Made by a program: the position numbers and the translations under genes. The notes under the pieces were generated by a model that was not told the origin of the DNA, did not search any database, and saw only the letters and a program-made list of their open reading frames with translations. A stretch of DNA of 63,934 bases, filler included, from Aduncisulcus paluster (lineage: Eukaryota): NCBI GenBank assembly GCA_024181965.1. It is 7 parts of 7 records of this genome, joined end to end, with 100 filler letters (N's around TTAATTAATTAA, not from the genome) between each part and the next. Parts side by side here need not be neighbours in the genome. Positions count along the whole stretch, not along the records: positions 1 to 8,280 come from BQXS01010011.1; 6 more parts are not named here. The stretch is one strand, 5' to 3'. This document shows, in pieces, positions 1 to 37,507 of the stretch (position 1 is its first letter; each line of letters opens with the position of its first letter).

Positions 1-3000
1 GGTAGAAGTGATGCTGGTGCAGAGTATGACAGGCTTGTCGTTCAGATCCTTGCAAAGACCGTTGAGTTCACTGGACTATCCGGCTCTCCGTCCACAGGTC
101 TCACTGACCTTTCTGTGAGTGGCTGTGGGTTGCGTAGGATCGAGGATGTGCTTGATCTCACCCCCATCTTTGAAGATAACAAGGATGATCTGACCAGACC
201 TTTCCGTCTCGAATCATTGAATCTCTCCTACAATTTCATCTCTGATGTCTCTGTTCTCATCACGGAGGCCATTTTCCCCCGTGACAATTTGCGATTCCTT
301 GATCTCCGTGGTAACAATATCTGTGATGTTGACAATGTCCGCCGTGAGTTGCTTGCCCATTTCACCCATCTCACCGATTCTTCGCTTCTGCTCTCGTCTG
401 CTGATCAAAGGTGTGAGTGTGACGATCCCGTCTCTTTCTCGTCACATCAAGTGTGTCGAGAAGTGGATTCTGGCTTTTGGGATGTTGAGTGCTGGAAAGG
501 ATATTACTTTGACATGCCGACTGGAGAGTGTAAAGAAGCTCTGATTGATGAAAACAAGGTGAAATATACGACATGTGAGGGAAGGCAAAAAATTAGCTCT
601 GATATAGAGGATTCTATTTTTAATTCAGTAGTTTTTGATGAGTGTAATAAGGGTTTTATATTCGATCCATATGAAAAATTGTGTAAAAAAATTCCAACAA
701 CTACAATTCAGAATCAAATTCCACAATCTAATTCCCATGACAATCTTTTTCCGATATTTACTGCTATTCTCATTTTGTGTGGCATAATCTATTCCATCTA
801 TCGCTGTTTCCACGGCAATATCTTAATTTTCTACTTCAAGATGCAACAAAAGTTGTTTTTGACCACAGATGCTGTTATTCAAACTGTAGAACCTGTGTTT
901 GTTCATGAAGGAGAATACGATTGCTCCACAATTCCTGGAGATTCCCCCAATATTAAGAGTGTAGAGTTTCCAACTATCAAAGCAATAGATGGAACCAAGG
1001 ATGAAGATGGATATCCCTACGATCAGAGTTCTAATGCGCAAAGGATGATGAAAGGAGAGTTTCATTATGGATATTTTACCCATATCTCCATTCCTTTCTC
1101 TTCGTCTTCCCCAATGAAAGGGGCTTATATCTGTCTATATGATGAATTTTTACTCCCATCACATCTTATCTTCACTCTAACATCTTCAAAGGGTGATAAA
1201 ACATCCAAGAAATATGAATTTCCTGAATTTGAAGATTATCATTGGTATTTCCTTCCTGTTGATCTCCCTGATGTTGTTCTGTGTGAAATTACAGGGAAAG
1301 CAAGAAAGAAAGAGAATTTTGGAATCTTCTCCCTTGTTTCCATTAGTAGAGAAGAAACTCCTGAAGAAATTAAATCTCGTGAAGCCAGAGAGAAACTATG
1401 GTCTGAAACTCCAGTTGTGAAACCAGAGTTTGTTAAGAAAGGATATAGAGATTCTATTCCCATTGCGCGTGATGATCCAAAGCTTGTAGATCCTTCATTC
1501 TCAATGGTTAAGTGCAAGAATGATGTGTATAGTAAGCAATCTGAGGAGTATGATAAGAGTTCAAGAGCACAAAAAATGTTGAAAGGGGAACGTGGTGTTT
1601 GCTTATCCCATCTTTCCATCCCTTTCCCCTCACCTAGTCCAATGAAAGGTGCTTATATCTGTGTGGATAAGAATTACAGTTCACCCTCTCTTCTCTTCAC
1701 TTTCACTGATTGTGATGGCAAGAAGACATACAAGAAGTATGAATTCACACAACCTGAACATGTTTTTGAATGGCACTTCTTTTCTATTGATTTGGATAGC
1801 GTTGTATTGTGTGAGATTGAGGGGAAAGGAACGTGGAAAGAGAAGGATAATCGTCATTTCAACATTCACTCCCTTGTTTTTCTTCGAGGTGATGATATTC
1901 CCACTTCTCCTCCTCTTCTTACTCCTGTTCCTGTTTCTTCCAGTTCCTCCAAGACAGCCACATCAACTTTGTCTTTGTCATCAAAAACCGTGAAAGAAAG
2001 ACAAGAAGAAGAACAAGAAGAAATTGTTATTAAAGGAAATGATAAGGATTCAACACCAAAAGACACCAAACAGAAGAAACCCAAAGATGGCAAGCCCAAG
2101 GATAAACCCAAGCACGACTCTTTCACTCTAACTTCCGCAGACCTCATCACTCTTCAGTGTAAAATTGGCACTGGTGGATTTGGAGAGGTTCTTCTTGTCA
2201 AGGTTGACGGCATTGATTCTCCATGTGTTCTGAAGAAGATGCTTAAAATCGCGGATAAAAGGGTTGTGAAAGATTGTCGAAAGGAGTTCAAGATGCAACA
2301 GAAATTGTTTATGAATGGCAAATGTTTCAATCGTATCCCACGTCCTTTGTACATTCTTGACCTACTTGATGCAGATATGAAAGGGGAATATGGATTTATC
2401 ATGGAATATTGTGCTGGAGGTAGTGTTAAAGATTTTGCTAGAAGTTGGTGTATTCAAGGAGATGGAGAAGAAGGTGAAGAGGATGAAGAAGAATGCTCTT
2501 CAGAAGAAGATAGTGGTTATTACAAATCTTTTGATCCCATGGCACTGAACCCTGTGAAAGTGTGTTCTCTCTGTGTTGGCATGATTGAATGTCTTGATAA
2601 TGTGTTTTGAGCAAAGAAGAGTCTTGTCCATCGAGATATCAAACCTGACAACTTCCTTGTTCGTGTTGATCCCGATTCTAAGAAATGCACTGTTGTCCTT
2701 GCTGATCTTGGTCTTGCCCAGATCCAAGACTCCATCTCCTCTTCCATGTCTTCAAGGAGCTTTGTTGATTTCTCCTCTAAGTCTGAAGATGATACTGAAG
2801 CCAAACACAAACTCAAACGCCCCTTCTGTGGAACACTTGTGTACAACTCTTTTGAAGCTCTCAAAGGAGATCAAAGCCAAGAGAGTGATGCTTACTCACT
2901 CGGTCTGACTATCTTTGCCTTGTTCAAGTGTAAGGATCCTTTCCTTCACCACCCCGTGTTACAATGTATTGATTCCCCGACAGAATATGCTAAGGAGCTT

Positions 3001-3639
3001 AGTAATCTCATTTCAAATGGAATGGGCCCAAAACTCTGTGAATCCCGTCTTTTCAAAACCCTGAATACCATTGAAGGTGGTAAGTTCAAGACTGTTTATT
3101 CCTGTCTGAATGAAATATTCGAAGGTTTGACAAAGGTTGACATTGATGAACGTATGAGTGTTCATGAAGCCTGTGAGAAAGTTCAATCCATTAAGGATCT
3201 CCTTCCAAAGATTGGAGAAGGATGGGAATATCCATCAATTGATAAAATTGTCGAGAAAAAGGAAAAAATGGTTCCAATATCAAAATCGATGAAAGATTTG
3301 TTTAGAAATAGAACTGATAGAATGTATGGACAACCAAACACCTTGGAAAATTCCTTGATTGATGCTGCAGTATGTATAATTGGGAAGAACTGGCCCTCTT
3401 CTTCCGAGTCAATAGAGTTATCAAGCTCTAGTGCACCGATTTCAGCTTCCGTTTCGACCCATCAAAGCAAATTGTCTCTTTCTTCTCGTCATCCCCCAAC
3501 ACCGAAATTATCGTTACATGTTGCATCAAATGAACATATATTCAAGGAGGATGCATCCGAGTCATTCTCTAGTGACGATACTGAATCTTCTGAGATGAAA
3601 TGTAGAATTGCAAAACTGCCAGACGATGAAGTGGAATAG
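1..3639 (+). pseudogene. Receptor-like kinase (5'-partial): LRR, Cys-rich modules, TM helix, two tandem ~170-aa lineage-specific repeats, Ser/Thr kinase; interrupted by one in-frame TGA at 2608-2610
   Basis: Frame is open from base 1. LRR motifs: LESLNLSYNFISDV, LRFLDLRGNNICDV. TM: LFPIFTAILILCGIIYSIY. Kinase: IGTGGFGEV, CVLKKM, then VF*AKKSLVHRDIKPDNF, DLG, GTLVYNSFEAL. ORFs 115..2610 and 2746..3639 are in the same frame, separated only by the TGA. Confidence 0.8.
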
Positions 3640-3792
3640 GTGATTAATGGTGTCATGATGTCTTGAATCCTGCAGCTCTCGCCACTCTTGTTATTCCTGA
3701 GATTTATTCCAATTCATGTTCCATCCACACACAAATGTATGCTTGACACGTTCTGGTGTGATAATTAGCAGTTGGATTAACCATCACACTGG

Positions 3793-4428
3793 TCAAATAA
3801 CGAACTGATTCACAACCTCTGCGGCAAGATCATATGCATCACAGTCCTGATATATCGAACTCAAGTTGATGGCCGCACACCATCTTAGGTCGCAAGCAAA
3901 CCCTTCCCTGAAGTCAACCATGAATGGCATGTCCTGTGTCGAGTGGATGTTGACGGATGCACTTTGGCTTGTTCTCGGTGGAGTCCTTCGTCTCCTCCGC
4001 CTTTCTTGGTTAAATAAAGCGTCCTTCAACATGAGTGCACCCGTCATATCGGTACCAACTTTTCGCATCCCTTTCTGTTTCAAACCACTCCTTTTCTTCT
4101 TCTTACGCCCCTTTCCAACATCGGAAGAGGTGTCAATATCCACACCATCTCCAGACCCTGGTGTGTCATCGATCATACGCACTTGCACATTAAACCACTC
4201 ATACGATGGACCCCTCGAATTAGACAGTGGTACCATCATCCCGCGAGCATCGTGCTGTTCGGTGATCGTCAATTCACTTCCAACACTCTCTTCGCCACGA
4301 AGGGCATCATACACACAATACAGCGAGACAGATGCTGATGGGGAGTGAAGAACAGCCCGATACAGGGGAATCGCAAGCGAAACCATTCCAATCTGCTGGA
4401 GAGCGCGTGCTAGATTATGAAAAATCAA
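3793..4428 (-). CDS. GTF3C3: C-terminal TPR fragment of RNA polymerase III factor TFIIIC subunit Tfc4/GTF3C3 (5'-truncated)
   Basis: FHNLARALQQIGMVSLAIPLYRAVL and DLRWCAAINLSSIYQ...LAAEVVNQFVI* match the C-terminal pattern of Tfc4 (YNLGR..HQLGL..LA..YY..AL; DLR...AYNL.LIY). An in-frame TGA lies 4 codons upstream of the ORF, followed by AT-rich non-coding DNA. Confidence 0.65.
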   Translation of the reverse strand: MIFHNLARALQQIGMVSLAIPLYRAVLHSPSASVSLYCVYDALRGEESVGSELTITEQHDARGMMVPLSNSRGPSYEWFNVQVRMIDDTPGSGDGVDIDTSSDVGKGRKKKKRSGLKQKGMRKVGTDMTGALMLKDALFNQERRRRRRTPPRTSQSASVNIHSTQDMPFMVDFREGFACDLRWCAAINLSSIYQDCDAYDLAAEVVNQFVI

Positions 4429-5058
4429 GATACTTACAAATCACAATTTTAAAAGGATAATCAAATAACTAAATTTTTTTTTCCGAAAAATAATAATTTA
4501 ACTAATGAATAGAGACAAATAATCCTTCTAAACAGATTTTCCAAAATAATGAGTTGAATTGATAGCCATTGTTCAAAAGAAATTTAAATTTTTCGAAAAT
4601 AAAATTATGTCGGTGCAGAATTCATGATTTTTTTTTCAATTAACCAACAAATTCAAACAAACCCAAACGAGGCAAAATACCAAAATTAAGGATAACAAGA
4701 TCAATAAGGATAATTAAGAATATTCAGCCTCATAATTTTTTTCAGTTCTTATATGTGATCTTATTTTGTTGATGCTAACAAAGAAAATCGCTTTGAAAAC
4801 CACCCTGATTTCTTTAAAATAATATTTTCATGGTATGAAGATTTGATTGATTTTTTGTTACGTTTGCTGACCTGATATTTGAATTTATTAATATTTATGT
4901 TGCAAACAAGAAAAAATATGATTGATCATGTTGATCATCTTCTGGACTGTCGATGGAATCTGTCAATAATTTTTATGTTTCTCTATATAATATTGCCAAA
5001 TTATATCATTCTTGCCCATACTTTTACAGAAATTGATCACCCGAACGAAGATCCAAAT

Positions 5059-6198
5059 ATGGCAGAATCACTCGCCAATGATGATTTCAGCGAATCAAGA
5101 GTAATTTTGGATATTGATCTTGCGAAGATTCGAGCCAATTATGAAGCTATACGGGAAACAGTAGAGCCATTGACAACAATGGCCGTTCTCAAAGCTGATG
5201 GATATGGCCTTGGAGCTCAAAGAATCGCAGAGTGTTTGAAGGATGCGGGTGTGACATGGTTTGGAGTCGCTGAAATGCACGAGGCAATGTCAATTCGTCA
5301 TTTAAATCTTCCAATCCAGATTCTTGGTGGAGTGATTGCAGAAGAAATTCCTGATGGAGTCAGAAATGATATTATTCTTCCAATCACAGACATGAAGACA
5401 GCCGAAGAGATCAGTACTGAATCCATACGTCAAGGAAAAGTAACTCAATGCCATTTTCTAATAGATTCTGGAATGGGACGCCTTGGAATCCGTATTTCAG
5501 AGGCCGAAGAGCTAATAATGGAGATAATGAAGCTTCCAAATATTGAGTGTAATGGAATATACTCACATTTCCCATATGCCTATGGGGATTATGATTTTTC
5601 TACCAATCAAGTGAGATCAATGATTCAGCTCATCCAAGATCTCGAGAGAAAAGGAATTTCATTCAAATATAAACACATTGCAAACAGTGATGGTATTCAT
5701 AATGTACCATCAGCGATCCAAGCTCCTTTTAACATGGTCCGCACTGGAATCAATCTGTATGGTTGTTTTGATCTTGAGGGACGCAAAACCATCTCTCTTG
5801 ATGAGGTGATCACTCTCAGATCACGTCTTGTAGGTATTCGAGACATGCCATGGGGGGCTTCAATAGGGTATGGTCGAACTTATAAACTGGACGAAGCAAC
5901 TCGTGTAGGAACTGTGGCAATTGGATACGCAGACGGTCTTCCAATTGGATTATCAAACAACGGATATGTTATAATTCATGGAAAACGATGCCCGATCATT
6001 GGCCGGGTCTCAATGGACTATATAACCGTTTCCCTTGATGAAGTTCCGGAAGCTCAAGTAGGTGATGAGGTTGTATGTCTTGGCGATGGAATATCTGTTG
6101 CTGATTGGGCCGAGGCCAAAAGAACAATAACCTACGAAATTATATGTTCATTTGGTAATAGAGTGGAGCGAAACTACATAAACGGTGATGGTAATTGA
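5059..6198 (+). CDS. alr: Alanine racemase, bacterial fold-type III PLP enzyme
   Basis: AVLKADGYG (PLP lysine), IDSGMGRLG, YSHF, HIANS, VRTGINLYG, SIGYGRTY (catalytic Tyr region), GYADG, GRVSMDY, TITYEIICSFGNRVER. ATG 5059 preferred because homology starts at RVILDIDLAKIRANY. Confidence 0.95.
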   Translation: MAESLANDDFSESRVILDIDLAKIRANYEAIRETVEPLTTMAVLKADGYGLGAQRIAECLKDAGVTWFGVAEMHEAMSIRHLNLPIQILGGVIAEEIPDGVRNDIILPITDMKTAEEISTESIRQGKVTQCHFLIDSGMGRLGIRISEAEELIMEIMKLPNIECNGIYSHFPYAYGDYDFSTNQVRSMIQLIQDLERKGISFKYKHIANSDGIHNVPSAIQAPFNMVRTGINLYGCFDLEGRKTISLDEVITLRSRLVGIRDMPWGASIGYGRTYKLDEATRVGTVAIGYADGLPIGLSNNGYVIIHGKRCPIIGRVSMDYITVSLDEVPEAQVGDEVVCLGDGISVADWAEAKRTITYEIICSFGNRVERNYINGDGN

Positions 6199-6459
6199 AT
6201 TAGACAAATTTGCGGGTGTAATAATTTTATATATTTATAATATGTTGAAAAATAAGGTGGTGTTCATTTGTCAATAAAGCAATAGTATAACAAAAAAGAC
6301 TGAAAAATAAAATCCCCTATAATAGCGATGGTGAATTGATTTAAATAGGTATTCTAAATATACATTGATATTATATCAAGTTTTGGAATAGATTATAGAC
6401 AAACGTTGATTTTTTGGAATCATGATTATAATATACCATTATCCACATAAGATATATGT

Positions 6460-6532
6460 GGGGGTGTAGCTCAGCTGGTAGAGCGCTTCCTTAGCATGGA
6501 AGAGGCCTTGGGTTCGAGTCCCAACATCTCCA
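6460..6532 (+). tRNA. tRNA-Ala (AGC), intronless, no encoded CCA
   Basis: Full cloverleaf: acceptor GGGGGTG/CATCTCC+A with the G3:U70 alanine identity pair, D-arm GCTCAGCTGGTAGAGC, anticodon arm CTTCC-TTAGCAT-GGAAG, T-arm TTGGG-TTCGAGT-CCCAA. Confidence 0.97.
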
Positions 6533-6833
6533 AATTTATTTAAGAATTGATCCTGTGAAGGAACGAAAGAACCCAGGTCAAACCACATCACATGCCATGC
6601 GTGAAATTTTAGGGCAAATACAATGGTTTCCTCCAAATTTCCTTACTATTGACAAAATTAGCTTGATTAATCAAATTCTATTCTAAAAATAGAAAATCTA
6701 AAAATAGAACTTGTCAATTATTTAGATGAATTTATTGGGAAGAACATAACTTTCTCAGTCATTAATCATCAAATATTCGTCTAAAAATGTTCAAAAGAGA
6801 CATTTCAAATGGAATTATTTGAACTTTGAAAAT

Positions 6834-8280
6834 CTAAAACTCAATACATTCAATTTTGCCACAACTTGAGGCACAATAAACTCGATACCCATCAATACAA
6901 GCACCTAGAATTTGTCCCTCAGATAATTGAAGCTTTAAAGCACAAACTGGTTTGGAACCATCTCCAGCAATACCACGAATATCCCACAAGCGCACAAATC
7001 CATCATAAGATGTTGAAATTATCTTGGCGCCATCAACATGAAGAAAAGAGATATCTTTCTTGTGCCCAGATAGATATAGAGTCTTTGATTTAGGCTGCCT
7101 TTTATCTGCAAAAAAGATCTTCTTCTCCGCCCCACCAGATGCGATAACACGCCCATCATGAACAGTATCCACACATCTCACTCGGGCCTTATGTTTCTGG
7201 ACAGTTCCAATCAATTTTTGTCTCTCAATATCCCATGATTTCACAGTGTGGTCAGCAGATCCCGTGATCAAATTATTTCCAGAACGAGAGCAACAATATA
7301 CACCCTTCGAATGACCCTCAAATTTTGTTAGCAACTCCCCTGTTGACGTATTCCACATGTAGGCAAAAGTATCCTTGCAGCATCCAATGATACAATCATC
7401 ATATAAGCCAACTTCATACACAGCTTTTGGATGTTTTATGATTCGCAATTCTTTCAAATCTTCTTCTTTCCATAACCTCACAATGCCTTCAGTATCAGAT
7501 GAGGCAAGAATACCATGGTTTGTGGATAACGAGAGAAGTTCAGAACCATGCATCGTCGTATTTAGCAGAGGAGTATTATATGAGCGATATTCATGGAGAG
7601 GATACACATCTGGCTCAAAAGAAACAACAGTACCATCATCATTTCCACAGAACATTAAGGAACCTCGCCCACCAACCGCAACACATCGAGAGGTTACGTT
7701 GCTTGTTCCTATCGAAAAAGTGGCTCGACGAATACCATCATGTTTTGCAGTTTCAAAGAATCCATTAGGATCCATTCTCTTCGACATTTCTGAGTGTGAT
7801 TCGCGATCAGAATCAGATTCATCAAGAGCAATCTCATATTTTGCTCCCTTCAAATGTTTTGAACCATGGATTTGGGAAGATTGTTTAGAATGCTGAATAA
7901 GGTCTGGATGTGAGTCCAATTCAGAAGCATTCGATCCCATCACACGATCCTTTCTAGATCTCATTCTAATTTTATCCTCACATACCAACGGTCGAAACCA
8001 TTTCAACATCAATATTTGTGCGGCAGAAGGACGATTCTCGGGTCTTTCGTCCATACATTGTTTGCATATTCCTTCCACTTCAGCTGGCATGCATCCTCCT
8101 TCCCACTCACAGAATACACATTGCAGCAACACTCCGAACGAGAACACATCGCTGGAAGGTGTTGGATGAGGTGAGACTCGATCTTTGATGGCCTGATCGA
8201 TCTCTGGAGCCATGTACATTTGAGTTCCTATCTTCATCGTTGGACTGATCAAACGCATTGTACGTTCACTACAATCGACG
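6834..8280 (-). CDS. Protein kinase C-lobe fused to a C-terminal WD40 propeller (5'-partial)
   Basis: GTQMYMAPE, SDVFSFGVLL, CMDERPENRPSA; then WD repeats (FEGHSKGVYC...GSADHTVKSWD, GHKKDISFL...SYDGFVRLWD). Frame is open to the contig edge. Confidence 0.85.
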
Positions 8281-8380: not shown

Positions 8381-8618
8381 TTCGGAATTTGCTGAAATCA
8401 AATTGTTTTTGTCAACAATTACTCCAATTCATCGCGTTAAATGTCTGTAATTTTTAAATTTTTTGGGTAACGACTTCGATATAATCATGGATATAATTGT
8501 GCTTGCTTGATTTTTCAGAAGGTTATGAACGAAATCAAAAATGGCTATTTTTGGACCTCGATGAATTGATGATCTTCTCCATTTTCTTTCGTTCTTTCGG
8601 AGAAATACACATTTTATT

Positions 8619-9605
8619 ATGGTTAAGATAGGAATTAACGGATTTGGTCGTATCGGCCGTATGACTCTCAGATCTGCTGTCAAGGATGAGACTATTGAAG
8701 TTGTCGCTCTTAACGACCCCTTCATTCCCCCTGAGTACATGGTTTACCAACTCAAGTATGATTCTGCTCAAGGTGCTTTCCCTGGTGAAGTGACTCACAC
8801 TGAGAATTCTCTCATTGTTAATGGCAGATCTATGCGTGTCTTCTCTGAGCGTGACCCTTCAGATATTGACTGGGCTGGTTGTGGTGCTGAAATTGTTATT
8901 GAATGCACTGGTATCTTCACCAAAACTGACCTTGCCAAGAAACATCTTGGTGGATCTGTCAAGAAGGTTCTCATCTCTGCTCCTTCCCCCGATGCCCCAA
9001 TGTTCGTTTATGGTGTAAATCATGAAACTCTTCGTGCTGATCAGGACGTTATCTCCAACGCTTCTTGCACCACCAATGCTACTGCTGGTGTTGTGAAGGT
9101 TCTCCACGATTCATTTGGCCTCGAGTCTGGTATCCTCACCACTGTTCACGCTGTTACTGCCACCCAGAAAACCGTTGATGGACCTTCCAAGAGCTGGAGA
9201 TCTGGTCGTGCCGCTTTGAACAACATCATCCCCGCCTCCACTGGTGCTGCCAAGGCTGTTGGAAAGGTTCTCCCTGCTGTTGATGGAATCCTTACAGGTA
9301 TGGCTTTCCGTGTCCCCACTATCACTGGTTCCGTTGTTGATCTTACTGTTAACCTCAAAAAGGCTGCTACTTACGACGAGGTCTGTGCCGCTGTTAAGGC
9401 TGCCTCTGGTGTCCACATGGGTTACACTGAGGATGAAATGGTCAGTTCTGATATCATTGGTGACTCTCATGGTGGTGTCTTTGATGCTAAGGCTGGTATT
9501 GCTCTCACTGATAAGTTCATGAAGCTCATCATTTTCTACGATAACGAGATGGGTTACACCTCTCAGTTGATGAGAATGCTTCACGAACTCGCCAAGAAGC
9601 TCTAA
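8619..9605 (+). CDS. GAPDH: Glyceraldehyde-3-phosphate dehydrogenase
   Basis: [24 protein letters not shown] (catalytic Cys), [49 protein letters not shown]; strong codon bias. Confidence 0.98.
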
Positions 9606-9971
9606 ATTTGATATTATCAATAAATCTTACAATTTAGTTATTTCGAATTTCGAAATTATTCCCGGATGATGGATTTTGCCGCGTAAGATGCCAATACAAA
9701 ATAGAATGAAATGAATCTAAGTTATGAGATATAATTTATATTGTGTTTTGGTCCAAATGATACCAGAATGATTAGTTTCGACCATCTCCTTATCCTGTCG
9801 AGTTTTTGGCTAAAACAACGTATTTGAGATGATCTTATTCATATTTATATAATATATATCATATTTTTGTTTCATTAGTGTTTATTTTTTCCTTCGAAGA
9901 GTGTTTATTTCATCCCACTTTAAATGTCTTTTTTGGGGTGTTACTGAAGAAAAATACCTTGATAAATTCGG

Positions 9972-12900
9972 TCACAATCCCATGTTTGCAGCAAAGAAAG
10001 ATTTTTGATACTTTGACAGACAATCATTGCACATAATATGATGAATTCCCACTTCACAGATATAACTGGAATCGACTTCTTTCTGACATTCTTTACAGAT
10101 CCAATTCAAACACCCAACACATTGAGAGGATGCCTTGTGAATCCCACAAACTTCACATCTCTTTGATTCTTTTGGTTCCTTTTCTGTTAGTGGCTCTCTT
10201 TTCGGAATTTTGAACTGAATATCATATCCAGACTCATCTATTGCAAAAATAATATCTGAATCACTTCTATACTGCCTAATATCAACAATTGAAGACTCAT
10301 GGAGTTGAATTACCTTGATCAATTTCAATTTTCCTCTCCATTGTTCTTTTTGAGATGCATCACCTCGAGGTGTCAAAATCTCTTCAACAGATGTCTTCGT
10401 TGATGATTCTGTGGACAATGGAACAGACAAAGAAGGAGATATACATACATCTTTCTCATGGATATTTTCTTGACCTGGATTCTTTCTCTGGAAAGAGTCG
10501 GACCCAATCTCAATAATATCCCCAATAAAATGAATAGAAAAAAAGCGGATTTCTCCATTATTATACCCAACGACAATAACTCCAGTTTCAAACCAGTCAG
10601 GAGCAGATAAAACACACGCACAAGTTGCCAAGATTGATGAATCATCAATATTTTGCAACAAATCACCTTCCATAACAATTTTCTGTCCCACATCACAAGT
10701 CAGAGAGAACATTTTAAGCTTTGACTGGGAAACAATGATGCAATCAGTGGAGTGGATATCGCATAGAGCAACAGGATTGGTCAAACCAGCTGAAAAAGAT
10801 CCAATAAAAGATATAAATCTTGAAGAATTTAGACCATGAAATCCATTCAATTTGCAAGCTGAAAGATAACCGAATTCGCTTGCAAACCATACAATTCCAC
10901 ATTCAGTTGAAACAATTTTCGTGACAGAACCAAACATCAAAGGTAGAGAAGCATGTATGGAAGACAGAGAAAAAATCTCATCCGAACACGAATCATCATC
11001 TAATTTAACCTCAATAATTCGACGAAGATGGCCAATACAATCGTAATATATATGTTTTGACCGTGATCTCTTTTTAGTGAAATTCAATTGAAATATAGAT
11101 ATGGAACCATCAACAAATCCAACAAATAAGATTGTATTCCCACAGTAAGAAGTAATATGAAGTGAAGTAGCCACAGAAGAAAAAGGAAGATGAAACAATG
11201 AAATGATATTAAACTTTGGATTTGCTTCAAAAGTTTCTGAAGCTGATTTCACACTTTCATACCGATCATGAATAAATGAAACCTCTTTTCCAGAAATAAC
11301 GACAATAACACTATTATTCCATTCACACCAAACATTTTCCCTACTTCTCCATACCTTCTCACGTCTATTTTTATCGATTGGAGCGATCATTCCACAGTTA
11401 TTTTCGAGAATATTTTGTAAGGATTCAGCAGGATACATGACTTTTCTCGGAAGAGAACTTACAGAATCTTCAAGTTGTGAGGGTATTACCCCAAATAAAT
11501 TGGCTTGTCTGGAGGCATCGGATCGAGGTTTCATTGAAGGAATATTCCAGAACATATGTGTATCAATATATCCAACCGGATGGAAAACATTATTTCGACG
11601 AATTGAGTCTATTCCTCGTTGTGCTTTTCCATACATCAATTCAACCCAATGATGAAGGCGTTTGGAGACAGGGGGTGACTCAAGGAGAATCCGCATTAAT
11701 CTGCACATCAAATATGGATTGTTGTGGCTCCAACGAGGCAATATCACATCCCAAACAGTACGTAAAGAATCCCCAGTTCGAAAATCAGTACATGTTCCAA
11801 TATTAAGCAACATCGATGAGTTGGAATATATTGAAGGAGAAGAAACATTGTCAATAACCATTTCCTTCACATCAGCAACATTATCTCTTGAAGCACCATT
11901 CCAAGCAGTAAAAATACTCTTAAATACACGATCTGCCTTATCAAATTGACCACTTTGAAGACAGATATGTTGCTCTAAGAATGGATATGTCCTAAGATTG
12001 TAAAACAATACAATTGCACTATTGGAACAGTGTGAAGAATATAAAAATGGAACATGAGGAATATTGGGCGTTAACACACTGTGAACACTGACAACCGATC
12101 GATCAATCAGCGATTTCATTCGTTTATCACTTAACATTCCCATGGGCATTGACAATGAACGGAAGGGGGTCACACTATCCAAAGAAGTAGGTTTCGGCGT
12201 ATGAAGAGTAGAATTCACGGAAGTTACAGATTTGGATGCAAAAGAAGAATCCGACGAAGGAGAATGGAAAGATGGTAATTCAGAAACTCCTTGCCCATCC
12301 TTTTCATAACTTGACGAATCTTGAAACCGGTGAGCCTGATTGTTAACATACCAATCCTTTCCGATATATATCTTATCATCCCGTGAATTAGGACATGAAC
12401 CATATCCACCCCAGACCCAAGGAATTGAGGGATATTGACTCAGTTCGCACACCCAACGTTGAGCAAGGAAAGAAAGCGAGGTCAAATATGAGAGTGATGA
12501 AATCATTGCTGTCGAATAGAGTAATTCTAAAGGTCGCAACAAGAATTGTATGCATGGATGTGGATTCGAGCGAGGAATACATTGTGAAGACGATATTGAA
12601 GAATCTTGAGAGGATGCCAGTGAGGAACTAGATGAAAGAATTGAATCGGACACATCAGAGCCATGAATATCAGCTTCAATAATTGATTTGGGATTGGAGT
12701 ACGGACTAGTCGGAAGGAGATGAGACGAAAAAATTTGGTTAAATGAGGTTGAAGATTCCTTGAATATCCTTGGCTTTCCATGTTTTGCGTGATTTATACT
12801 CCAATCCGACCACAAACTCAAAAGATCGAGAAAATGCGAATTGAGTGCTTTCACATTGAATTGACTATCTTTTAGTTGCTCACCTGGCGGTAACACAGCA

Positions 12901-15900
12901 AAATGAAGTGCATGTCGATCAAGTTCTACATGAAGAGGGAAAGGAACTGTTAAAATATCATATAAAAGTTGAGAATATGTCATTTTAGATGAAGAAAAGA
13001 AAAGATTTGACTTCGATGAAGTTTGAACGGTCATCTTAACCCCAGTAGAATCTGAAGATGAGGACAAGAAAGGGAATTTTTTCGATCGCTTTCTTCCTCG
13101 ATTCTCTCCTTTCCATCTTTGAGTGGCAAGAACAAAGATATCAGACCAAATACGAACAACAAGTGAAGGTATGAACTTTGAGAAAGAAGAACTAGGTGAT
13201 ATTTGGGAACAATGTGTGAAAAATTCTTCGTTGGTGCCCATATTATCAGTAATTTTCTCAAATATGGGGTGAGATAAATCATGACCTAAAATTTGAAAAG
13301 CTCGACCAATGTAAAGAGTAGCCATACTGACTGTTCCAGGAACGGGAAGGTGGTCTTGTCGACCTGATATCACGGAGATGTATTGGAGAATTGGAGACAC
13401 AATGGTTGGGGAGATAGAAAGCAAAGAAAGCGATGGAAGGGGAGAAAATACTTCTTTCTTTTGAATGATCGAAAGAAAAGAATCTGTATTGTGTCGAATT
13501 GTCATATTCTGGCGACATATAAGACAAAATAACATACATGCTCGTTCGGCCACTCCCTCAGGATAAGACCATGTGTTTGAAGAATTCAATTCATCGATAA
13601 AAACGAATGAATCGCAAACTGATAGTGCAGGATGGGGTGGAATATAATTATTATTATCCTTATCCATGGAAATATTGGTTTCATCTCCAAATCCCATTAA
13701 ATCAAGGTGAACTTCTTGGATATCTTGGCGTTCAACAGAAACTCCAACTCGTCGCAAACCATGAACAGTATTTCGTAGGGATATCAATGCATCATATGGA
13801 TAGAATCTTGGAATACAAGGTGGATCAGGAGGGATGAGGGTCTGTTGATCAGTTTCCCGAGTTGCACGTTCGAGCATGACTCTGTCTTGACACAGATTGA
13901 CGAGAAAGAGATCCTCATATTCTTGATCATATGATAAAACACGTTGAATATCGGATAATTCTGAGTCTTTTGAGGGGATTTGTGGCGAAGGACATAAACA
14001 AAGACTCTCTAATAACTCACCAAGAAAAGAGGATTCTCTATTTTCATTGGAAAGATGTCCATCAAGAGAAAATTCATATTTCTTCTTTTTCCAGTTAGAA
14101 ATATTTTCATCGGAGTTCGAGTTGACTTCAAAATCTTTTCCGGTTCTTTTTTCGATCGCCACTCCAGGAAGGATCCAAAATCCAACATCCGACATGACAC
14201 AAACACAAATCATTGGGCTCAAAAGATCAGTGCTAAGTGCCATTTCGCATACGAGAAGAGGTTTAACTGAGAATAAAGACAATAAGGGGATGGATTTATA
14301 CCGTTTTACACGTGGAAACAAAACATGTTTTGACAATTCCGAGGTTTGACTTGAGGAATCTTTGTATTGGACAAGTTGGTGGCTTGCATTCGGGAATAAA
14401 GAACAACTCCATGCATTAAAACAAGGATATAAATAACAAAAAGATGACATACAATTATCACCCGCTTCAAAATCGGAGTCAAACTTTAGGATGGTATTTG
14501 TTCTCTCGTAAACTCCAACATTCATGTTAAATGCTCTTGAAAGTTCTTCAATATCAATTTCAATGAGAGATGAAAATGAATCCGAGTCCAATTCATATGA
14601 TTGATCTACGATCGGCAATATGTTTTCATTTTCTTCTTCTCCTCTTCTTCTTCTTCGACGAATCCATGAATATAATAATGCAAAATAGGAAGATGCCTGT
14701 TTTTCTGCTTTTGGGCATTTTGTTCCCGATTTAATCCATTCACTGCCAAAATTCTTAACAAACATGCCAGACTTTGGAATATTAAGAGATGAAATCGATG
14801 AAAGTGATAGAAAAGAGGATAAATGAAGAGACAAAGAGAGTCTAGAATCAGAAATAGGTGCTTTGGAATCAGTTGTTCGCTTTGTCAGAGTAGATATTAT
14901 TGAACTTTCACCATTACTTTTTGAAATGAGACTTTGATAATATCCTTCTGTAAACATTGGCACCAATATATTTCTTTGTAAAAAACCCTGTGAGGATGAT
15001 AAACATGCAGGACTAAGAGAATAGAGATTCGGATGAAGAGATGATGAAAGAATAGCAGAGGATTTGGATAAAAATAGATTAGATGAGAAGAATCTCTATA
15101 GATGTTGAGAATACAAAGAATGTGATGAGATTTGAGGATGTTTTGTCATCTTAATAATTATGGGAATAGCTGAAATGGGAGGAATTGTTGAAGATATTAT
15201 TGTTTGTAAATCACTTAAAGGCTTTGCTTCATCTTCGCCCATTCGAATAACATTAATTTTTGATTCAAGATCAGAACAANNNNNNNNNNNNNNNNNNNNT
15301 ATCCTTCTGTAAACATTGGCACCAATATATTTCTTTGTAAAAAACCCTGTGAGGATGATAAACATGCAGGACTAAGAGAATAGAGATTCGGATGAAGAGA
15401 TGATGAAAGAATAGCAGAGGATTTGGATAAAAATAGATTAGATGAGAAGAATCTCTCTAGATGTTGAGAATACAAAGAATGTGATGAGATTTGAGGATGT
15501 TTTGTCATCTTAATAATTATGGGAATAGCTGAAATGGGAGGAATTGTTGAAGATATTATTGTTTGTAAATCACTTAAAGGCTTTGCTTCATCTTCGCCCA
15601 TTCGAATAACATTAATTTTTGATTCAAGATCAGAACAAAGCATTGCAAGACATTTTGCATTCAAATGCATACGATTCACCACTGTACATAAAGAAAGATA
15701 GGAGTTTGACAATGATAGAGCAAAAAATGATGGAGAATCATCATCGAGACAGACATCTCCTTCCTTTGGTTCCTTCTCACTTTGACTGATCGTTTCTCCT
15801 TCTTTCTCTCGACGTGTTCCACTTGGAATGTCAGTTTTAAATGAATATTTCCATTCAACTTCAAGCCAATCCTTCATTTCCAGGTCAGAATTGTCAAGAA

Positions 15901-18026
15901 TTCTAGATAGGGTGTCAGAATTTGCAGAAATAGTTGAAGGAGGTAGAGGATATATTGGGGTTGAAGCAGATTTTGGAGAGAGAAAATTCAAACAACACTG
16001 ACCACAACAATTATCAACAAATTGTTTCACAAGATCGAGTTCAGATATTTCATATTGATCAAAAGACTTTTGTGAAATTGGAGAATTAAACAAGGAAGGA
16101 ACCTGAGAAACAATTACCATGACAAGAGACATTGCAACAGAAGAAGACTGAATTTTTGATGAGGGATGAATTCTATCGATGCACATCGGAAGAAGGAAAT
16201 ATAACAAAGCGGAGATGAATATCCGATCAATACAAACGGAAGAGAAAGGATCGAAAAAGGGCATTGAAGACACACTTGAATATTTGTGTTTCTTTTGTTC
16301 AATATCTCGTTTCTTTTTTGAGGGATCTCTAAAAATAGACAATTGAGTTGTTGCTGGACCACAGAGCCATAAAGTGATGTTTTCAATAAGAGATTCAAAC
16401 ACATCATTCTCCGAGAGTGAAAAAGATTCCTCCAATAAAGCAATTTCTAATTCCTTTTCAATCACAATCCTCTCTCTTCTCCGTTGAATCCACATAAGAA
16501 CCCAAATACAACAAGAAACATAGACTTCTCTGACGATTATGGAAATATCGCAGCAACACAGTATCTCGGAAAGAACAGAGGTTTGGATATCCTTCGAGCC
16601 ACCTGTAACTCCGATAAATGAAGCCTTGAGAAGGGCACGAAGTGATCTAAGAAATCCAGAAATGAATAAGAAAGTCGAGGAAATTGCCCTTGGAACAGTT
16701 GAGGAAAGAAGGGAGAAAAGAGTCGACAATGGACAAAATTTATCAGCCTTCTTCTTTTGAATCTCTTTTTTCCACTCAGCTTCTTCAATAGTGCATAACC
16801 AAACACAAATATCAAGGAACCATTGACACATTTTAGCGATTGTGGCAACCGAAGTATCGAGGATTTTGCTTCTATCTTTCCATTCTTTCTCCTCGATCAT
16901 TGCTTCCTTGCGTTTCGATCTTAAAAATATGGAGGAAAACAAGCTCGATTCCTTCTCCTTTCCCTCGCCCATCGCTTGGCTTGAGTTCACATCTGGGTGG
17001 AAAATATTGTTTATGTAATCAAATAAGAACCATTTCGTTGTCATATCAATATTCTGATACATAGAAGTCCTAGCACATTGAGACGAGATTCTAAATTTTT
17101 CTCTCAACTCATTTTCATTACTTCCATTCTTTCCTTTGAGAATTTTGAGCAAAGTTTTACGTCGACAGCTGGAAGAGTTCAATTTCTTCAATTTCGTGAG
17201 AGATATTGATATTGCTTCTTCAAATTCACCAATTAAGAAATGACAATTCTGAAATTTAGTTACAAACTTCTGTTGGAGCAAGCGATTGCAACAAGGAGAA
17301 ATTGATGAAGCAAATAAGCAAATGGATGAGATAGAAAGCAAAATAGAGGTCATTTCAGAATCTTGATCGAGAGAATAATCGTCAATGTTCCAAAGTTCAC
17401 GCTGAATTAATATTAGATTTGCAAATAAAAGTGACGAATTCGAGAGAGAAGAGGGAAGGAGAGATATCAATGAAGGCGAAGAAGAAATAGGTTTGGAATT
17501 TGTTGTTCTTTCAAAAGTTGGCACCATATTTGAGGAAGAAATCGACGATGTGGCAATTATTTCAGGTTCAATCTCATTCTTTTTCTTCTCCCGCTCTTTT
17601 TCTCTCTGAACCCACTGATCAAATATTTGAGACATCAGAACTCCATATTGAGAAACTGATTTTGAAAATATATTCATGTATTCATCAGATATGGCTTCAA
17701 TTCCAAGTTGGATTATTGAATTCGATGAAGATATCGCAATGAGATGAGAATTCAATGCATGCATCCAATTATCTATTTTTAAATCTTCAGATATCAGAAT
17801 TCGTCCAAGATAATAGAAAACGAAGCAATTTCGCATGAAAACACTTGTTGAGAAGTATGAAAAGGGGGAGTATGAAATCAAAGGAAGGGAAGAAGAACAA
17901 GAAAAGAGTAAAGAAGCCAAGGGAAAGGAAGAATGCACAAGAGAAGTTGAGGAGATATATTCTTCGGATCCAGTCGAAACAGAAAGAGTACTTGTAGATG
18001 ATTCAGAGGACAAAGGCGAAGAGCAT
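9972..18026 (-). CDS. Large BEACH-WD40 protein with C-terminal FYVE-like Zn finger (WDFY3/Lvs/Bph1-like); 5'-partial, >=~2,560 aa after collapsing the gap duplication
   Basis: BEACH: ISSLSYLTSLSFLAQRWVCELSQYPSIPWV, FLYSSHCSNSAIV, LQSGQFDKADRVFKSI, DVKEM, DVILPRWS, LESPPVSKRLHHWVELMYG, NVFHP. C-terminal Cys pairs CEVC, CVGC, CKEC, CNDC. ORFs 15215..18013 and 9972..14966 join through the duplicated 14941-15279/15300-15638 segment. Confidence 0.85.
14941..15638. repeat. Assembly duplication (339 bp) across the 20-N gap at 15280-15299
   Basis: Both flanks begin TATCCTTCTGTAAACATTGG. One mismatch near 15098 makes TAG in the left copy versus GAG in the right copy (minus strand). Confidence 0.9.
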
Positions 18027-18126: not shown

Positions 18127-18963
18127 GAGGTTATCGATGAAGTCTAGGTTATAAAGTATCGTTCCAAGAGTAAGCTCTGTTACAGTGGATGGGATTGAAC
18201 TCAGATCACGGGGATTAAGAGACAAGTACAAAGTAATATCTTCATCTATATCCATATCTAAGTCATCAATTAAATGCTCCATCACATTCAACGACGTCAC
18301 CGTCGCTGGCACAGGAGACAAATCATACACGCTCGTGCCACTCAGATCCAACGTCGTCAGCGCGGGGAGGGCTGACCCATCGGACAGGGCAAGACTCGAA
18401 AAGAACCCGGGGAACGTGACGTTCGTGCGCCCAGAGATGGAAAGCGTGGTCAGGGACGATGGGAACATGCCTTGCACAGTCACATCATAGTGATTGTCAG
18501 AGTCGAACAGAGGACTCAGGGACGACAGCTGAGTCGCCCAGTAGTCGCCAGAAGAAACGACTCCAACAGTCAAGTACAATGCACGCAGAGACGTCAGACG
18601 CGAGAAATCAGTGTTCGGCGCAATGTCAATGTTATTCAGCGTAAGCGTCTCCAGGCTCGTGGGAAGATCCTCGATGTCACTGGTGCTCAGTTGTTTGGAT
18701 ACAGAGTCCGTGTTGCTCACATACAGCGTCGTAAGGTTCGTCGCAGCACTCAGGCCTGCGAAGGAGTCAACGAAGTACGTGTTCAACGAGGTCAGGTGTT
18801 GGAGGTCATCTACAGTCAAGTCATCACAATAGGCTGTATGATCAAGGGCAAGGCAGATGTCGTTCCGAAGGTTGGCATCAACAACGTCATCAGTTGTGGT
18901 TAATGATGCACAAAATGGCATGACAAAAGCAATTACAAGCAGAAAAAAAAGAATTTGCTGCAT
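18127..18963 (-). CDS. Secreted/surface leucine-rich-repeat protein (3'-partial)
   Basis: Signal-peptide-like MQQILFFLLVIAFVMPFCAS; N-cap DANLRNDICLAL; LRRs LQHLTSLN, LETLTLNNIDI, LTSLRALYL, LTTLDLSGTSVYDLSPVP. Runs into the linker. Confidence 0.8.
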
Positions 18964-20683
18964 CCAGGCGAAGGATCCAAGGATGTTATGAATTCTTCCA
19001 GGAAATTTCATTTTAATTACAAATTGGCGGGTATGCCGAAAATTAATCATAAATTTCTCGATTGGCACTTTGTAGGTCGGAAAAATCGTCAAATCGGAGA
19101 GGATATTCTTCACCTCATGAATAATTCATCGTGAATCATTCACTCCATGATCATCATCAGCATGATACTCGTGTCGTATGTCCCCATCAATAGAACAGCA
19201 ATGCTCCCATTCTTTTGGTTATTATACTTCATTTCTGTTGTCATCCCGATGATCGGGACCCGATCGATTCGATAAATTATCGATAATGTTTTGAGTCCAA
19301 CCCTATACACAGAAATAAACTCAAGAATAAGGATATATTTCCTAGTATTTGCTGGAAACTGCAAAGAATATTTCGGGGATATGAATAGTTAACGATTTGT
19401 CATCAATCGCCTTTCTTGTCATCAATCACGGGTTATCTCGTTTTCATTGTTCATGTGATCATGATATCTTTGACCTTTTGGCGGAGTATTTCATGCTTAA
19501 TGGGATCAACTATAGTCTAAACAAAAGTTATTGATTTGAAAACATATCCTGAATGAGTTGGTGCATCTCTCAATGTTTTATGCCTGAGTAATGGTGGGTA
19601 TATTTAACTATATTTCATTGATATGATCAAATTGTATAAAATGATGATGAATCAACAACCTTTGTCTTGCTCTAGTGTTGAATACACTTGGGACGGAACA
19701 GGATACGCGGTCGAATTTGTCCCAACCCCCGACCTGATACCGAACAAGAACCCACAAACACAGAACCTACAATGTGAAAACCCTGGGACTCAGCAGGATA
19801 AAGTAGGAGATGCCAGTAGTCGAGAGGCAAAGTCAGAGGCGGTGAGTGAAGAACACAGGCATGAGACCGCCATAAGGGGAGAGGAAAGAGAAGAAGAAGA
19901 CCCTGGTGAGGCATTAGAAAGTGAAATGATGAAGTTTTCTTAATACAACAGTTGTGTGACGCCGCACAAACCTGATGAAAGGAGTACAGCCTCGGAAGCT
20001 GTTACAGGGGACCGAGAGAGGTCGAAGACTGAGAAGGAAGCGGAGGAAGAGGAGGTCTCAGTCGGTGCTGATCCTAAGAGGGAAAAAAAAATGAGAGAAA
20101 AGGAGAACCTGCAGCCCCAAAAAATCAGAATAAGCTGTTGGACGAATCCAATCTCCTACATCAACTGGGTGAAGACTCGGATGAGGACACAGACAGTTCG
20201 AGTCGTGCATGGAGTCAGGTGTTGTGGATATTTTAGAAGAGAAGGAGGATGAAGGAGTTCTCGCAAATAGAGTTTCTTCCAATACCAATGAATGGTGAAC
20301 CTAATCATTCAACCCAGGGGGAAGAAGAACAACAACCTTCCGGGGGGTAGCTCCTCAGCCAGAACCTTGAACCGAATCTCTTGCTCAATTCAAAAAATAA
20401 ATTAATAACCAAATAAAAATTAACATAAAGAGATGGTTTTAATAAGGAATTTTACCCTTATATAACATGTAACTTACAAATAATTTCCATAAAATCAAGT
20501 GAATTATCTTCACAATAGAAAGAAATTGAATAAATTTATTTGACTTTTTAAATTCGTCATTAATTTTTATGGAAATCAGTGGTGTATTTTGACAGTTCCA
20601 TATTGATGTTTTCTTTTTCTGATTCGGATTTTCGATTCACCTTTTTGCAACACAATACACCGACCAGAAAAAACAATTGTCCA

Positions 20684-21787
20684 ATGAATATTAGAGTTCA
20701 GTTTGCGACCCCTAATCGTATTAGATGTTACGCATTTTTAGTAGGTGGTGATGTGACTAAACAAACTCCTTCTCGAGAACTCCCTCAATTTAGTGACAAG
20801 GGAGTTCTTATGTTCTATTATGATGCCATAAATCAAGCATGTCTTCGAATCGTCGCCAATCCCCATGGTGGTGCTTATCAACCCGCCATTTATGATGTTG
20901 GCCATCCAACCCGTGTATTTTTCCTAGAAATGGGAAAATTAGTTGTTTATCCTAAAAGTAACCCTAATCCTTTAATGTTTCACTTTGCTTCATCCAAAGA
21001 ATTCGACGTGAGAGTGAAGAACTTCTTCGGTCCTATATTTATTAAACCTAAAAAACGGCCGGTGCCTACCCCTGGCCCCATTATTGGTCCTACCCCAAAG
21101 CGTGATGACCCTACACCCGTGGACCCTACTCGTCCAACTCCAAAACAACGTAAGAAGAATCCTTTCCCTCAATTCAGATATGACTCTCCCGATCAGATTC
21201 CTCTGACTAAATTACACCTTTACGCGACATTACAAGAGCCAGACTCATCAGATTCCGGTAAAACTGGATCTGCTGAGAAGAGATTGTCAGATTTGGCCAC
21301 GACCAAGGTGCCCCCAGAGATCGAGGTGACACCCGCTAGTTCTCTCCTTAAACAAATGATGATATGTCCCCTGAAAAAGGCAGGAATGTCCAACGAAGAT
21401 GTATATACTAACACGATTAAATCTATGGGTGCTGAAAGTTTAAAATCTGTAAGTGCTGTTGAATCTCGTGCCAAGAGTGATCCCTTGGCTAAGAAATATG
21501 GTATTATTATGGAGGCCTTGAAGACAGACTTTGAAGGGCCTCAATTTAAAAAGCCTGAGGAAAAGAAGAGGGCCCGTGACTCTGTGTCTAATCTGATGGA
21601 CAGTGGAGTCAGTGCTCAAGTTGCTGTGAGTGCCCTGAGAAGCACATTTTGGAATGTCAGAAGAGCTCATCAGGTGATTCAAGCCCAAAGAAGGAGTGGA
21701 GCTACCATGGGTTATGGAAGCGGTGGTTACAGTACAGGCGGATATGGAGTTGGTGGATATGGAGCTGGAGGTTTCACTGGATTCTAA
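20684..21787 (+). CDS. Hypothetical adaptor: globular (possibly PH-like) N-terminus, Pro-rich linker, C-terminal UBA-like domain, Gly/Tyr tail
   Basis: SVSNLMDSGVSAQVAVSALRSTFWNVRRAHQVI fits the UBA pattern (L..MG.....A..AL.....NV..A); tail GYGSGGYSTGGYGVGGYG. The PH-like call is inference only. Confidence 0.6.
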   Translation: MNIRVQFATPNRIRCYAFLVGGDVTKQTPSRELPQFSDKGVLMFYYDAINQACLRIVANPHGGAYQPAIYDVGHPTRVFFLEMGKLVVYPKSNPNPLMFHFASSKEFDVRVKNFFGPIFIKPKKRPVPTPGPIIGPTPKRDDPTPVDPTRPTPKQRKKNPFPQFRYDSPDQIPLTKLHLYATLQEPDSSDSGKTGSAEKRLSDLATTKVPPEIEVTPASSLLKQMMICPLKKAGMSNEDVYTNTIKSMGAESLKSVSAVESRAKSDPLAKKYGIIMEALKTDFEGPQFKKPEEKKRARDSVSNLMDSGVSAQVAVSALRSTFWNVRRAHQVIQAQRRSGATMGYGSGGYSTGGYGVGGYGAGGFTGF

Positions 21788-21868
21788 GAAAACACAAGGA
21801 AAAAAACATAAGTGTTGAATGGTTTTATGATTGTATCAATCCATTATTTAATCAATTATGAAAAGATC

Positions 21869-37464: not shown

Positions 37465-37507
37465 TCCTTTTATCTATCTATAGTTATTATTGAACCTTTA
37501 TTTCACC

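Follow-up and report, generated by a model that had tools for sequence, protein, structure and literature searches.

The gene at positions 1 to 3639

The window analysed here is a stretch of 63,934 bases in which seven contigs are strung together with spacers of the form N44-TTAATTAATTAA-N44. Its first 3639 positions are the 3' part (~3.6 kb) of a gene of Aduncisulcus paluster, an assignment made because the paralogues of the gene bear that name. The gene is read in frame 1 of the plus strand and has lost its 5' end at the contig end. It encodes leucine-rich repeats (LRRs) followed by a Cys-rich part, a single membrane helix, two jelly-roll repeats (G1 and G2), a disordered linker, a divergent protein kinase and a Ser-rich tail (Table 1). 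A sequence-only reading of the same DNA had placed LRR, Cys-rich part, transmembrane (TM) helix, two repeats and kinase in one frame; these modules and their order were recovered, but the frame is cut at its 5' end and holds an in-frame TGA that had been missed. We think it reasonably likely that the locus represents a rare recombinant membrane protein of the order LRR-Cys, TM helix, G1-G2, linker and kinase, that this copy is stopped before its catalytic loop, and that the family as a whole is mainly soluble.

The LRRs of the outer part are detected at aa 69–112, where the LRR_1 model scores 22.1 bits and passes its cut-off of 20.6, while LRR_4 (E 1.4e-5) scores 25.7 bits on the same stretch, under its cut-off of 27. 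Strong LRR_4 matches occur in relatives of aa 1–285 such as P0337 (E 2e-33) and P0333 (E 2e-21). The combined LRR-Cys unit is repeated two to seven times within large, mostly partial paralogues (P0322–P0345), and a further relative, P0348, has a weak Teneurin-like EGF match. Several LRR-Cys proteins are misleadingly named 'Acidic leucine-rich nuclear phosphoprotein 32 like' in GenBank.

The membrane helix is the only segment of its kind in the protein and lies between the LRRs and the kinase, with Arg and Lys after it and neither of these before it. The N-terminus of the protein was lost at the contig end, and relatives of the LRR-Cys part, including P0344 and P0323, have N-terminal hydrophobic segments. 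The simplest topology is that of a type I membrane protein with LRR-Cys outside and the G1-G2-kinase portion inside. Free G1-G2 proteins, which begin 'MSSSTD.VIQTVEPEF', have no hydrophobic segment, and neither do the soluble G-kinases that were scanned (P0183 and P0190). That the pair follows the helix here, and that its free copies carry neither a signal peptide nor a hydrophobic segment, speaks against the repeats being part of an outward-facing sensor. Two public runs of one sample, X1 and X2, yielded contigs that were built independently of the assembly and that show presence, not absence. A 1734-nt contig of run X2 spans window positions 1–718 plus 1016 nt further upstream, and the missing 5' part of the gene is therefore present in public data.

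An AlphaFold2 (AF2) model of aa 287–1075, with a predicted template-modelling score (pTM) of 0.49, contains a rigid G1-G2 pair (predicted local distance difference test, pLDDT, >90), a disordered 75-aa linker and a kinase whose acidic insert and activation segment are disordered. The model gave no confident contact or docking between pair and kinase. The linker is of a type common to 23 paralogues. The kinase scores 61 bits against a Pkinase cut-off of 31.7 and carries the motifs GTGGFGEV, VLKK, HRDIKPDN, DLG (within 'ADLGLAQ') and YNSFE (within 'LVYNSFEAL'), the last two just as the sequence-only reading had reported.

The kinase domain is interrupted by the TGA before its HRD loop. When approximately 50 paralogue kinase segments were aligned over the site, nearly all kept CVGMIECLD(D/N)VF-x-AKK.LVHRD, where x is mostly R, T or K, and also Q, L, I, V, E or C; the TGA therefore stands in place of an ordinary codon. 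It probably arose when one base of an Arg codon changed. The TGA is unchanged in X1 record 5 (2489–2637) and X2 record 13 (2399–2638), with zero differences and no alternative letter listed, and the contigs that carry it are as deep as the unique, single-copy flanks; no joint is listed at this place. The reading frame stays open for 343 codons past the TGA, and so either the change is young or the codon is read through. With a stop ahead of its catalytic loop, the gene in this copy most likely became a pseudogene very recently; at best it would encode a membrane protein whose kinase is dead.

Three ways of removing the stop were considered and rejected. Reading TGA as Trp (genetic code 4) would affect a single in-frame TGA in the gene and scarcely changes the real open reading frames (ORFs) of the window, and TGA is therefore a stop in A. 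paluster. The public gene model P0180 (1199 aa) skips the TGA by means of a 39-nt GT..AG 'intron' at 2573–2611, which would delete 13 alphaE residues kept in all paralogues and for which no joint is listed in X1 or X2; this 'intron' is an artefact of stop avoidance. A 15-nt intron at 2601–2615 would likewise excise the TGA together with residues that are kept in all aligned paralogues. Model artefacts like the P0180 'intron' may be common in the A. paluster annotation.

Table 1. Positions of the gene modules, of the further features discussed and of the contigs and spacers, numbered along the whole window.
Feature	Position	Strand	Remarks
Leucine-rich repeats	1–390	+	aa 1–130; outer part; 5' side cut by contig end
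Cys-rich, EGF-like part	391–720	+	aa 131–240; read from sequence; with the LRRs forms one 'LRR-Cys' unit
Single membrane helix	745–801	+	aa 249–267, LFPIFTAILILCGIIYSIY; Kyte-Doolittle 19-residue window ≥2.0
28-nt kinase-derived fragment (FKMQQKLFL)	835–862	+	at the joint of membrane helix and G1
G1, first jelly roll	862–1365	+	aa 288–455; unit hidden Markov model (HMM) E 1.8e-87; AF2 pLDDT >90
G2, second jelly roll	1408–1890	+	aa 470–630; unit HMM E 2.1e-89
Pro/Ser/Lys-rich disordered linker	1891–2115	+	aa 631–705; AF2 pLDDT 27–36 (model residues 348–420)
Divergent eukaryotic-type protein kinase	2116–3225	+	aa 706–1075; Pfam Pkinase (PF00069) E 1.5e-16
28-nt element, native copy (alphaC-beta4, FKMQQKLFM)	2287–2314	+	within the kinase
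In-frame TGA	2608–2610	+	aa 870; between helix alphaE and the HRD catalytic loop
Ser-rich C-terminal tail and stop codon	3226–3639	+	shared with P0266 only, among 348 proteins
Free G1-G2 gene	52175–53269	-	complete ORF, 364 aa; no signal peptide, no hydrophobic segment
Partial ORF, signal peptide and LRRs	18127–18963	-	LRR_4 29.3 bits; 3' side cut by contig end
Alanine racemase, bacterial-type	4879–6198	+	both Pfam domains, E 1e-54 and 8e-43
WD40 beta-propeller protein	6834–8258	-	short N-terminal kinase-like remnant
Contigs	1–8280, 8381–18026, 18127–30967, 31068–38142, 38243–51447, 51548–62295, 62396–63934		
Inter-contig spacers	8281–8380, 18027–18126, 30968–31067, 38143–38242, 51448–51547, 62296–62395		

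The tandem jelly roll and its kinases

An AF2 model of the free G1-G2 pair, built from an alignment of 50 free proteins, reached a pLDDT of 89.5 and a pTM of 0.84 and consists of two beta-sandwiches linked by a helix. The best Foldseek match in the PDB was the tandem CBM32 of 7jnd (E 1.6e-9), and neuropilin b1b2 and factor VIII C1C2 were also found. Single units compared by VIA, which is independent of Foldseek, matched CBM32, IFT25, APC10 and other DOC domains, the muskelin discoidin domain and PITH at Z 10–12, with a root-mean-square deviation (rmsd) of 2.6–3.2 over 117–145 aa. G1 reached Z 11.2 to IFT25 (2yc2) and 12.2 to 4jx0; G2 reached Z 11.3 to CBM32 (7d2a), 11.1 to APC10 (8a3t) and 10.9 to the HECTD3 DOC domain. 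Each repeat is, as modelled, a galactose-binding-domain-like jelly roll, and the structural comparisons agree with the jelly-roll guess made from sequence. A double-jelly-roll capsid of a mobile element was rejected as an identity for the pair: matches from the viral fold library were F5/8-type C, galactose-binding and tail-fibre proteins at template-modelling scores below 0.3, with one capsid row (Picornavirales, rank 42) among the 50 matches listed.

At the level of sequence profiles, G1-G2 is an orphan family. None of 50 members matched Pfam, no clan family appeared even at E up to 10, and a G1-G2 profile found nothing under E 1 among PDB sequences. In the ESM Atlas the best feature score was 0.85, which is a lead only, and the structure rows were again of the F5/8-type C kind. 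The two repeats are 29–41% identical to each other, and the unit HMMs match both the kinase gene and the free pair at E 1e-78 to 1e-89, far beyond chance. That the same pair also stands alone on another contig was borne out by the complete minus-strand ORF listed in Table 1, which is 60% identical to G1-G2 of the kinase gene over 347 aa and is separated from it by contig boundaries in this seven-contig window.

A search with the free protein matched 156 proteins of 200–637 aa and 84 of 638–2000 aa (at least 240 G-carrying proteins), and a precomputed kinase domain is recorded in 44 of the 84 longer ones. A. paluster accounts for all 119 near-length matches listed, 83 of 84 longer matches and 28 of 29 N-terminal matches, the one remaining entry in each of the latter two lists being the window gene's own model. 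A profile search of 1.84 billion representatives returned 165 clusters, 109 of them at E 1e-30 or better. A metagenome scan with the G1-G2 alignment produced 120 pattern matches and no confirmed relative, although this test is weak in that it required exact motifs. The G1-G2 and kinase family is real, lineage-specific and modular. The claim of lineage specificity held for named homologues, which are all from A. paluster, and for the repeat, which has no Pfam or PDB sequence match.

The 346 retrieved proteins were classed with our own HMMs; the set is biased by retrieval and many of its entries are partial. It comprises 221 proteins with G units only, 98 with G units and a kinase, 25 with LRR-Cys only, and two LRR-Cys-TM-kinases that lack G units (P0346 and P0347). 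The usual order in the G-kinase proteins is G1-G2-kinase, with 1 to 14 units ahead of the kinase, and G units are also joined to thioredoxin, a fidgetin-like AAA ATPase, MSP, nitroreductase, an ABC-type protein and LRRs. Modularity, as first proposed, is therefore evident in the arrays before kinases, the free pairs, the LRR-Cys proteins without a kinase and the LRR-Cys-TM-kinases without repeats. The dominant form of the family, however, is overwhelmingly soluble, as free G1-G2 and (G1-G2)n-kinases. LRR-Cys, G units and kinase are combined in two of the 98 G-kinase proteins, namely the window gene and P0266. With LRR-Cys this rare and most members soluble, the notion of a receptor repertoire for prey or parasite recognition does not fit the family, and the receptor-repertoire reading as a whole is only partly supported. 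The present copy, moreover, has a premature stop. The signal-peptide LRR gene that had been offered as a free module of the same system is a contig-end-cut ORF unrelated to the LRR-Cys part, to which it shows no similarity (best BLASTP E 0.13; no match among 348 proteins).

The kinases share a signature of their own. HRD is present in 63 of 64 catalytic segments and DLG in 60 of 64, while Y-NSYE occurs in 34 of 44 matched kinase segments and NSFE in three. The motifs that had been called atypical are therefore conserved throughout the family, and its kinases retain every catalytic residue. A phmmer search of the kinase against all PDB sequences gave 17 matches at E 5.7e-7 to 8e-6, among them an unnamed Ser/Thr kinase, PASK, CDPKs and RIPK1, and no plant receptor-like kinase (RLK) or IRAK. 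It is distant from all kinases of known structure.

Many G1-G2 genes (P0008, P0054, P0074, P0091, P0102, P0167 and others) have a conserved stretch directly upstream of their start, and the amplified unit therefore includes a 5' leader or promoter. In gene models this stretch is translated as '...(N/S)SISIQ' ahead of 'MSSSTD', and internal modules of arrays keep that Met, so that the annotated modularity may in part reflect over-extended gene models. The P0176 model has a retrotransposon integrase end (Integrase_p58_C and chromodomain) directly ahead of G1-G2-kinase, which may mean that an element has inserted ahead of the gene, or may point to the way in which copies were dispersed. Among the titles and abstracts listed for A. 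paluster, none concerns kinases or this family, and our literature searches listed neither a paper on metamonad LRR kinases nor a description of the G1-G2 and kinase family.

Mosaic structure, proposed origin and mechanism, and alternative readings

The closest paralogue of the window gene changes along its length. P0266, on another contig, is 95% identical in the outer part and 100% identical over the last ~70 residues of the tail, and it is the only match to aa 1081–1212; for G1 and G2 it ranks 258 of 310 and 240 of 314, respectively. Within the kinase, aa 706–900 are closest to P0128 (77–100% per 30-aa window) and aa 901–1065 to the LRR-TM-kinase P0347 (up to 97%). We had considered the FKMQQKLF motif as the breakpoint of this kinase mosaic and rejected it, as the nearest neighbour switches instead near aa 900–915.

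The joint between membrane helix and G1 carries a possible trace of recombination. Here a 28-nt fragment matches the native kinase copy at 25 of 28 nt, against a chance expectation for the region of ~1e-5 by our own estimate, and its peptide, FKMQQKLFL, is a rare variant found elsewhere only in the kinase of P0266. We read the fragment as a probable scar of illegitimate recombination, and infer the order of events from the sequences. Recombination between paralogues would have joined a cassette of G1-G2 and kinase to an LRR-Cys-TM-kinase gene, and the membrane form would be its rare and recent product. In this copy a codon that is usually Arg has changed to TGA, so that the protein ends ahead of the catalytic loop. 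Exchange may be frequent in the family: of 37 proteins in which G2 adjoins a complete kinase, only three had the same nearest neighbour for both domains, and eight had a shared neighbour within the top three. This discordance agrees with frequent exchange, but near-equidistant paralogues would give the same result. The shuffling proposed by the sequence-only reading is supported by nearest neighbours that vary by module; some paralogue 'fusions' that keep their own Met and leader may be artefacts of gene models.

For an intact form, the following mechanism can be proposed. One or more LRR and EGF-like Cys-rich units would lie outside the cell, followed by one helix and by G1-G2 inside, and a floppy linker of ~75 aa would join G1-G2 to a divergent kinase that keeps HRD, the Asn, the Asp of DLG, the Gly loop and the Lys. 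By analogy with DOC/APC10, IFT25, PITH and the muskelin discoidin domain, G1-G2 is most likely a cytoplasmic binding module; tethered by the linker, it would supply the kinase with partners or substrates. These partners would be shared with, or competed for by, the free G1-G2 proteins, and in intact membrane forms ligand binding by the LRRs would act on the cytoplasmic G1-G2-kinase unit.

Several observations weigh against our interpretation. The only A. paluster genome is a draft assembled by MaSuRCA from Illumina reads alone and annotated with Braker2, comprising 29.4 Mb in 25,863 contigs with an N50 of 4.6 kb, 15,316 predicted proteins and a BUSCO score of 40% (PMC9933649). Stretches that are 100% identical between paralogues are places where the assembler could have switched copies. 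Over ~870–2050 the run contigs are short and multi-copy, no record connects the LRR-TM end to the kinase, and run X2 is RNA by guess only. The only other protein with LRR-Cys, G units and kinase, P0266, has a weak hydrophobic segment (<1.6 on our own scale). The 343 open codons after the TGA fit read-through as well as a very recent change. The family is lineage-specific as far as named matches go, since nameless representatives in the 165-cluster search could belong to other organisms. Finally, the mechanism is drawn from fold analogy, with partner, ligand and kinase activity all putative.

The quality of the draft raises the question of whether the gene exists at all as a single molecule. 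In an assembly chimera, the contig would join pieces of several paralogues, and no one molecule would encode LRR-TM-G1-G2-kinase-tail. Short-read-only assembly into so many contigs (PMC9933649) would favor such an error, as would the summed contig depth in 869–1984, which at 100–600 times that of the flanks means many near-identical copies; the segments also differ in their nearest paralogue, windows of complete identity allow a path switch, and no listed X1 or X2 contig covers the entire stretch. Nevertheless, the joint of TM helix and G1, where misassembly had been the earlier worry, is bridged with zero differences by contigs of both runs (X1 record 3, 689–870; X2 record 10, 689–895), and the LRR-TM ORF running into G1 is therefore real. 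Moreover, the outer part and the tail lie at opposite ends of the gene, yet each is shared with P0266 only, which on its own contig also runs through LRR-Cys, G unit, kinase and tail, and G1-G2-kinase is the commonest continuation after a G1 start (31 of the orders listed). We therefore regard a chimera as unlikely, though it must be kept in mind. It is also conceivable, if distinctly improbable, that two genes share one frame, with a G1-G2-kinase gene starting at ATG 841–843 (MQQKLFLTTDAV...) and an upstream LRR-TM ORF running into it with no stop between. In many paralogues the internal G1-G2 modules do retain a Met of their own (MSSSTDAVIQ), with a translated leader (...SISIQ) ahead of it, which shows that ORFs and gene models often continue through the start of a module, and this ATG lies seven codons ahead of the homology to free genes. 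Yet any transcript started upstream would be translated as a fusion, the ATG sits in the kinase-copied fragment and not in the usual leader, and in P0266 too the LRR-Cys part is continuous with the G unit.

The TGA invites a different objection, namely that it is read through, or is an artefact of the culture or of sequencing, and that an LRR ectodomain signals to an active kinase in a working receptor. The frame stays open past the TGA with all catalytic motifs intact, the variability of the site among paralogues means that any inserted residue would be tolerated, and canonical LRR-Cys-TM-kinase relatives exist (P0346 and P0347). However, contigs from X1 and X2 alike show the TGA at single-copy depth and list no other letter, TGA acts as a stop elsewhere in the window and its reading as Trp adds little to real ORFs, and the public model escapes the stop only by deleting conserved alphaE residues through its short 'intron'. 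A working receptor thus seems to us rather improbable. We give a similarly small chance to a broader interpretation in which A. paluster would have built, from an orphan tandem jelly roll, an intracellular system of its own for signalling or recognition, with the diversity of the units kept by recombination between copies as in immune-type repertoires; G arrays would then be cytoplasmic sensors of foreign or prey molecules, free G1-G2 proteins decoys or adaptors, and LRR-TM grafts a link to the surface. Our preferred reading thus remains a rare recombinant membrane protein, broken in this copy, within a mainly soluble family.

Relation to known systems and the rest of the window

In a survey of LRR-kinases (PMC10463195), LRR-TM-kinases are described as having been put together independently in plants and oomycetes, the oomycete kinase being lineage-specific, and metamonads are not mentioned. 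Plant Pelle/RLK and oomycete LRR-kinases, as covered there, have the same order as the window gene, with LRRs outside, one helix and a Ser/Thr-type kinase inside. In contrast to both, the A. paluster kinase is not Pelle/RLK-like (its best PDB matches, at E 6e-7 to 8e-6, are mixed kinases), the gene adds a Cys-rich EGF-like part after the LRRs and a tandem jelly-roll pair between membrane and kinase, and only a small part of the family consists of membrane forms. The gene would be a further independent LRR-TM-kinase assembly with a new intracellular insert. Counted as the third of its kind, and as one made by a metamonad from a kinase family of its own, it would be a data point on how easily LRR-TM-kinases originate.

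The receptor kinases DDR1 and DDR2 carry an extracellular discoidin domain that binds collagen, and the same chain has a membrane helix and a kinase. They resemble the window gene in combining a galactose-binding-domain-like fold, a membrane helix and a kinase in a single chain. However, the A. paluster pair is cytoplasmic with the LRRs outside, and the two are unrelated in sequence: none of the 50 members of the A. paluster family matches Pfam F5_F8_type_C.

Closer parallels in location are cytoplasmic proteins with the same fold as the G units, including APC10/DOC (8a3t, 5a31, HERC2 7rgw, HECTD3 9r6v), IFT25 (2yc2), muskelin (4oyu) and PITH (1xpw; TXNL1 9e8o). G units match these at Z 9.9–11.2 and rmsd 2.5–3.5 over 117–145 aa, with no sequence-profile match. 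The shared intracellular location therefore points to protein-protein binding by G1-G2. Unlike in these proteins, the G domain always occurs as a fixed tandem pair or in arrays of up to 14 units. The thioredoxin-PITH protein TXNL1 also resembles P0061 and P0093, in which thioredoxin follows G1-G2, but the domain order is reversed in A. paluster. The best whole-model matches have two galactose-binding-domain-like domains in tandem: the CBM32 pair of Clostridium perfringens ZmpB (7jnd, 7jnb), neuropilin b1b2 and factor VIII C1C2. VIA gave Z 13.4 over 281 aa for these, although the orientation of the domains differs (rmsd 12–13, template-modelling score 0.3) and identity is 6–10%. These proteins are extracellular binders of sugar, lipid or peptide, unlike the cytoplasmic G1-G2.

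The more substantial result lies at the level of the family, the locus itself being a broken mosaic in a weak assembly. At least 1.6% of the proteins predicted for this free-living Giardia relative carry the G1-G2 pair, which is attached to ~100 divergent kinases. As a concrete candidate for a new Pfam family, the pair also offers a way into signalling in a lineage for which experiments have yielded hardly any data. The A. paluster genome note describes no gene families (PMC9933649). The locus also illustrates how Braker-type models in this draft conceal premature stops with introns that are artefacts, and how they run modules together into what look like fusions.

Elsewhere in the window, the standard code gives dense, long ORFs, and a Pfam scan found BEACH, WD40 and TB2/DP1 proteins as well as GAPDH and alanine racemase; the window therefore comes from an intron-poor eukaryote. 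A bacterial origin is ruled out by the BEACH, WD40 and TB2/DP1 proteins, and named relatives of the proteins studied are throughout from A. paluster, a free-living fornicate. The window also contains six scaffold gaps, each a block of N20, and gene order read across its spacers or gaps is meaningless. The bacterial-type alanine racemase shares its contig with the kinase gene and a WD40 gene and is a candidate for lateral gene transfer into A. paluster. In the WD40 protein, the N-terminal kinase-like remnant covers Pkinase profile positions 155–192 only (E 1e-5), and this protein may be another truncated kinase fusion.

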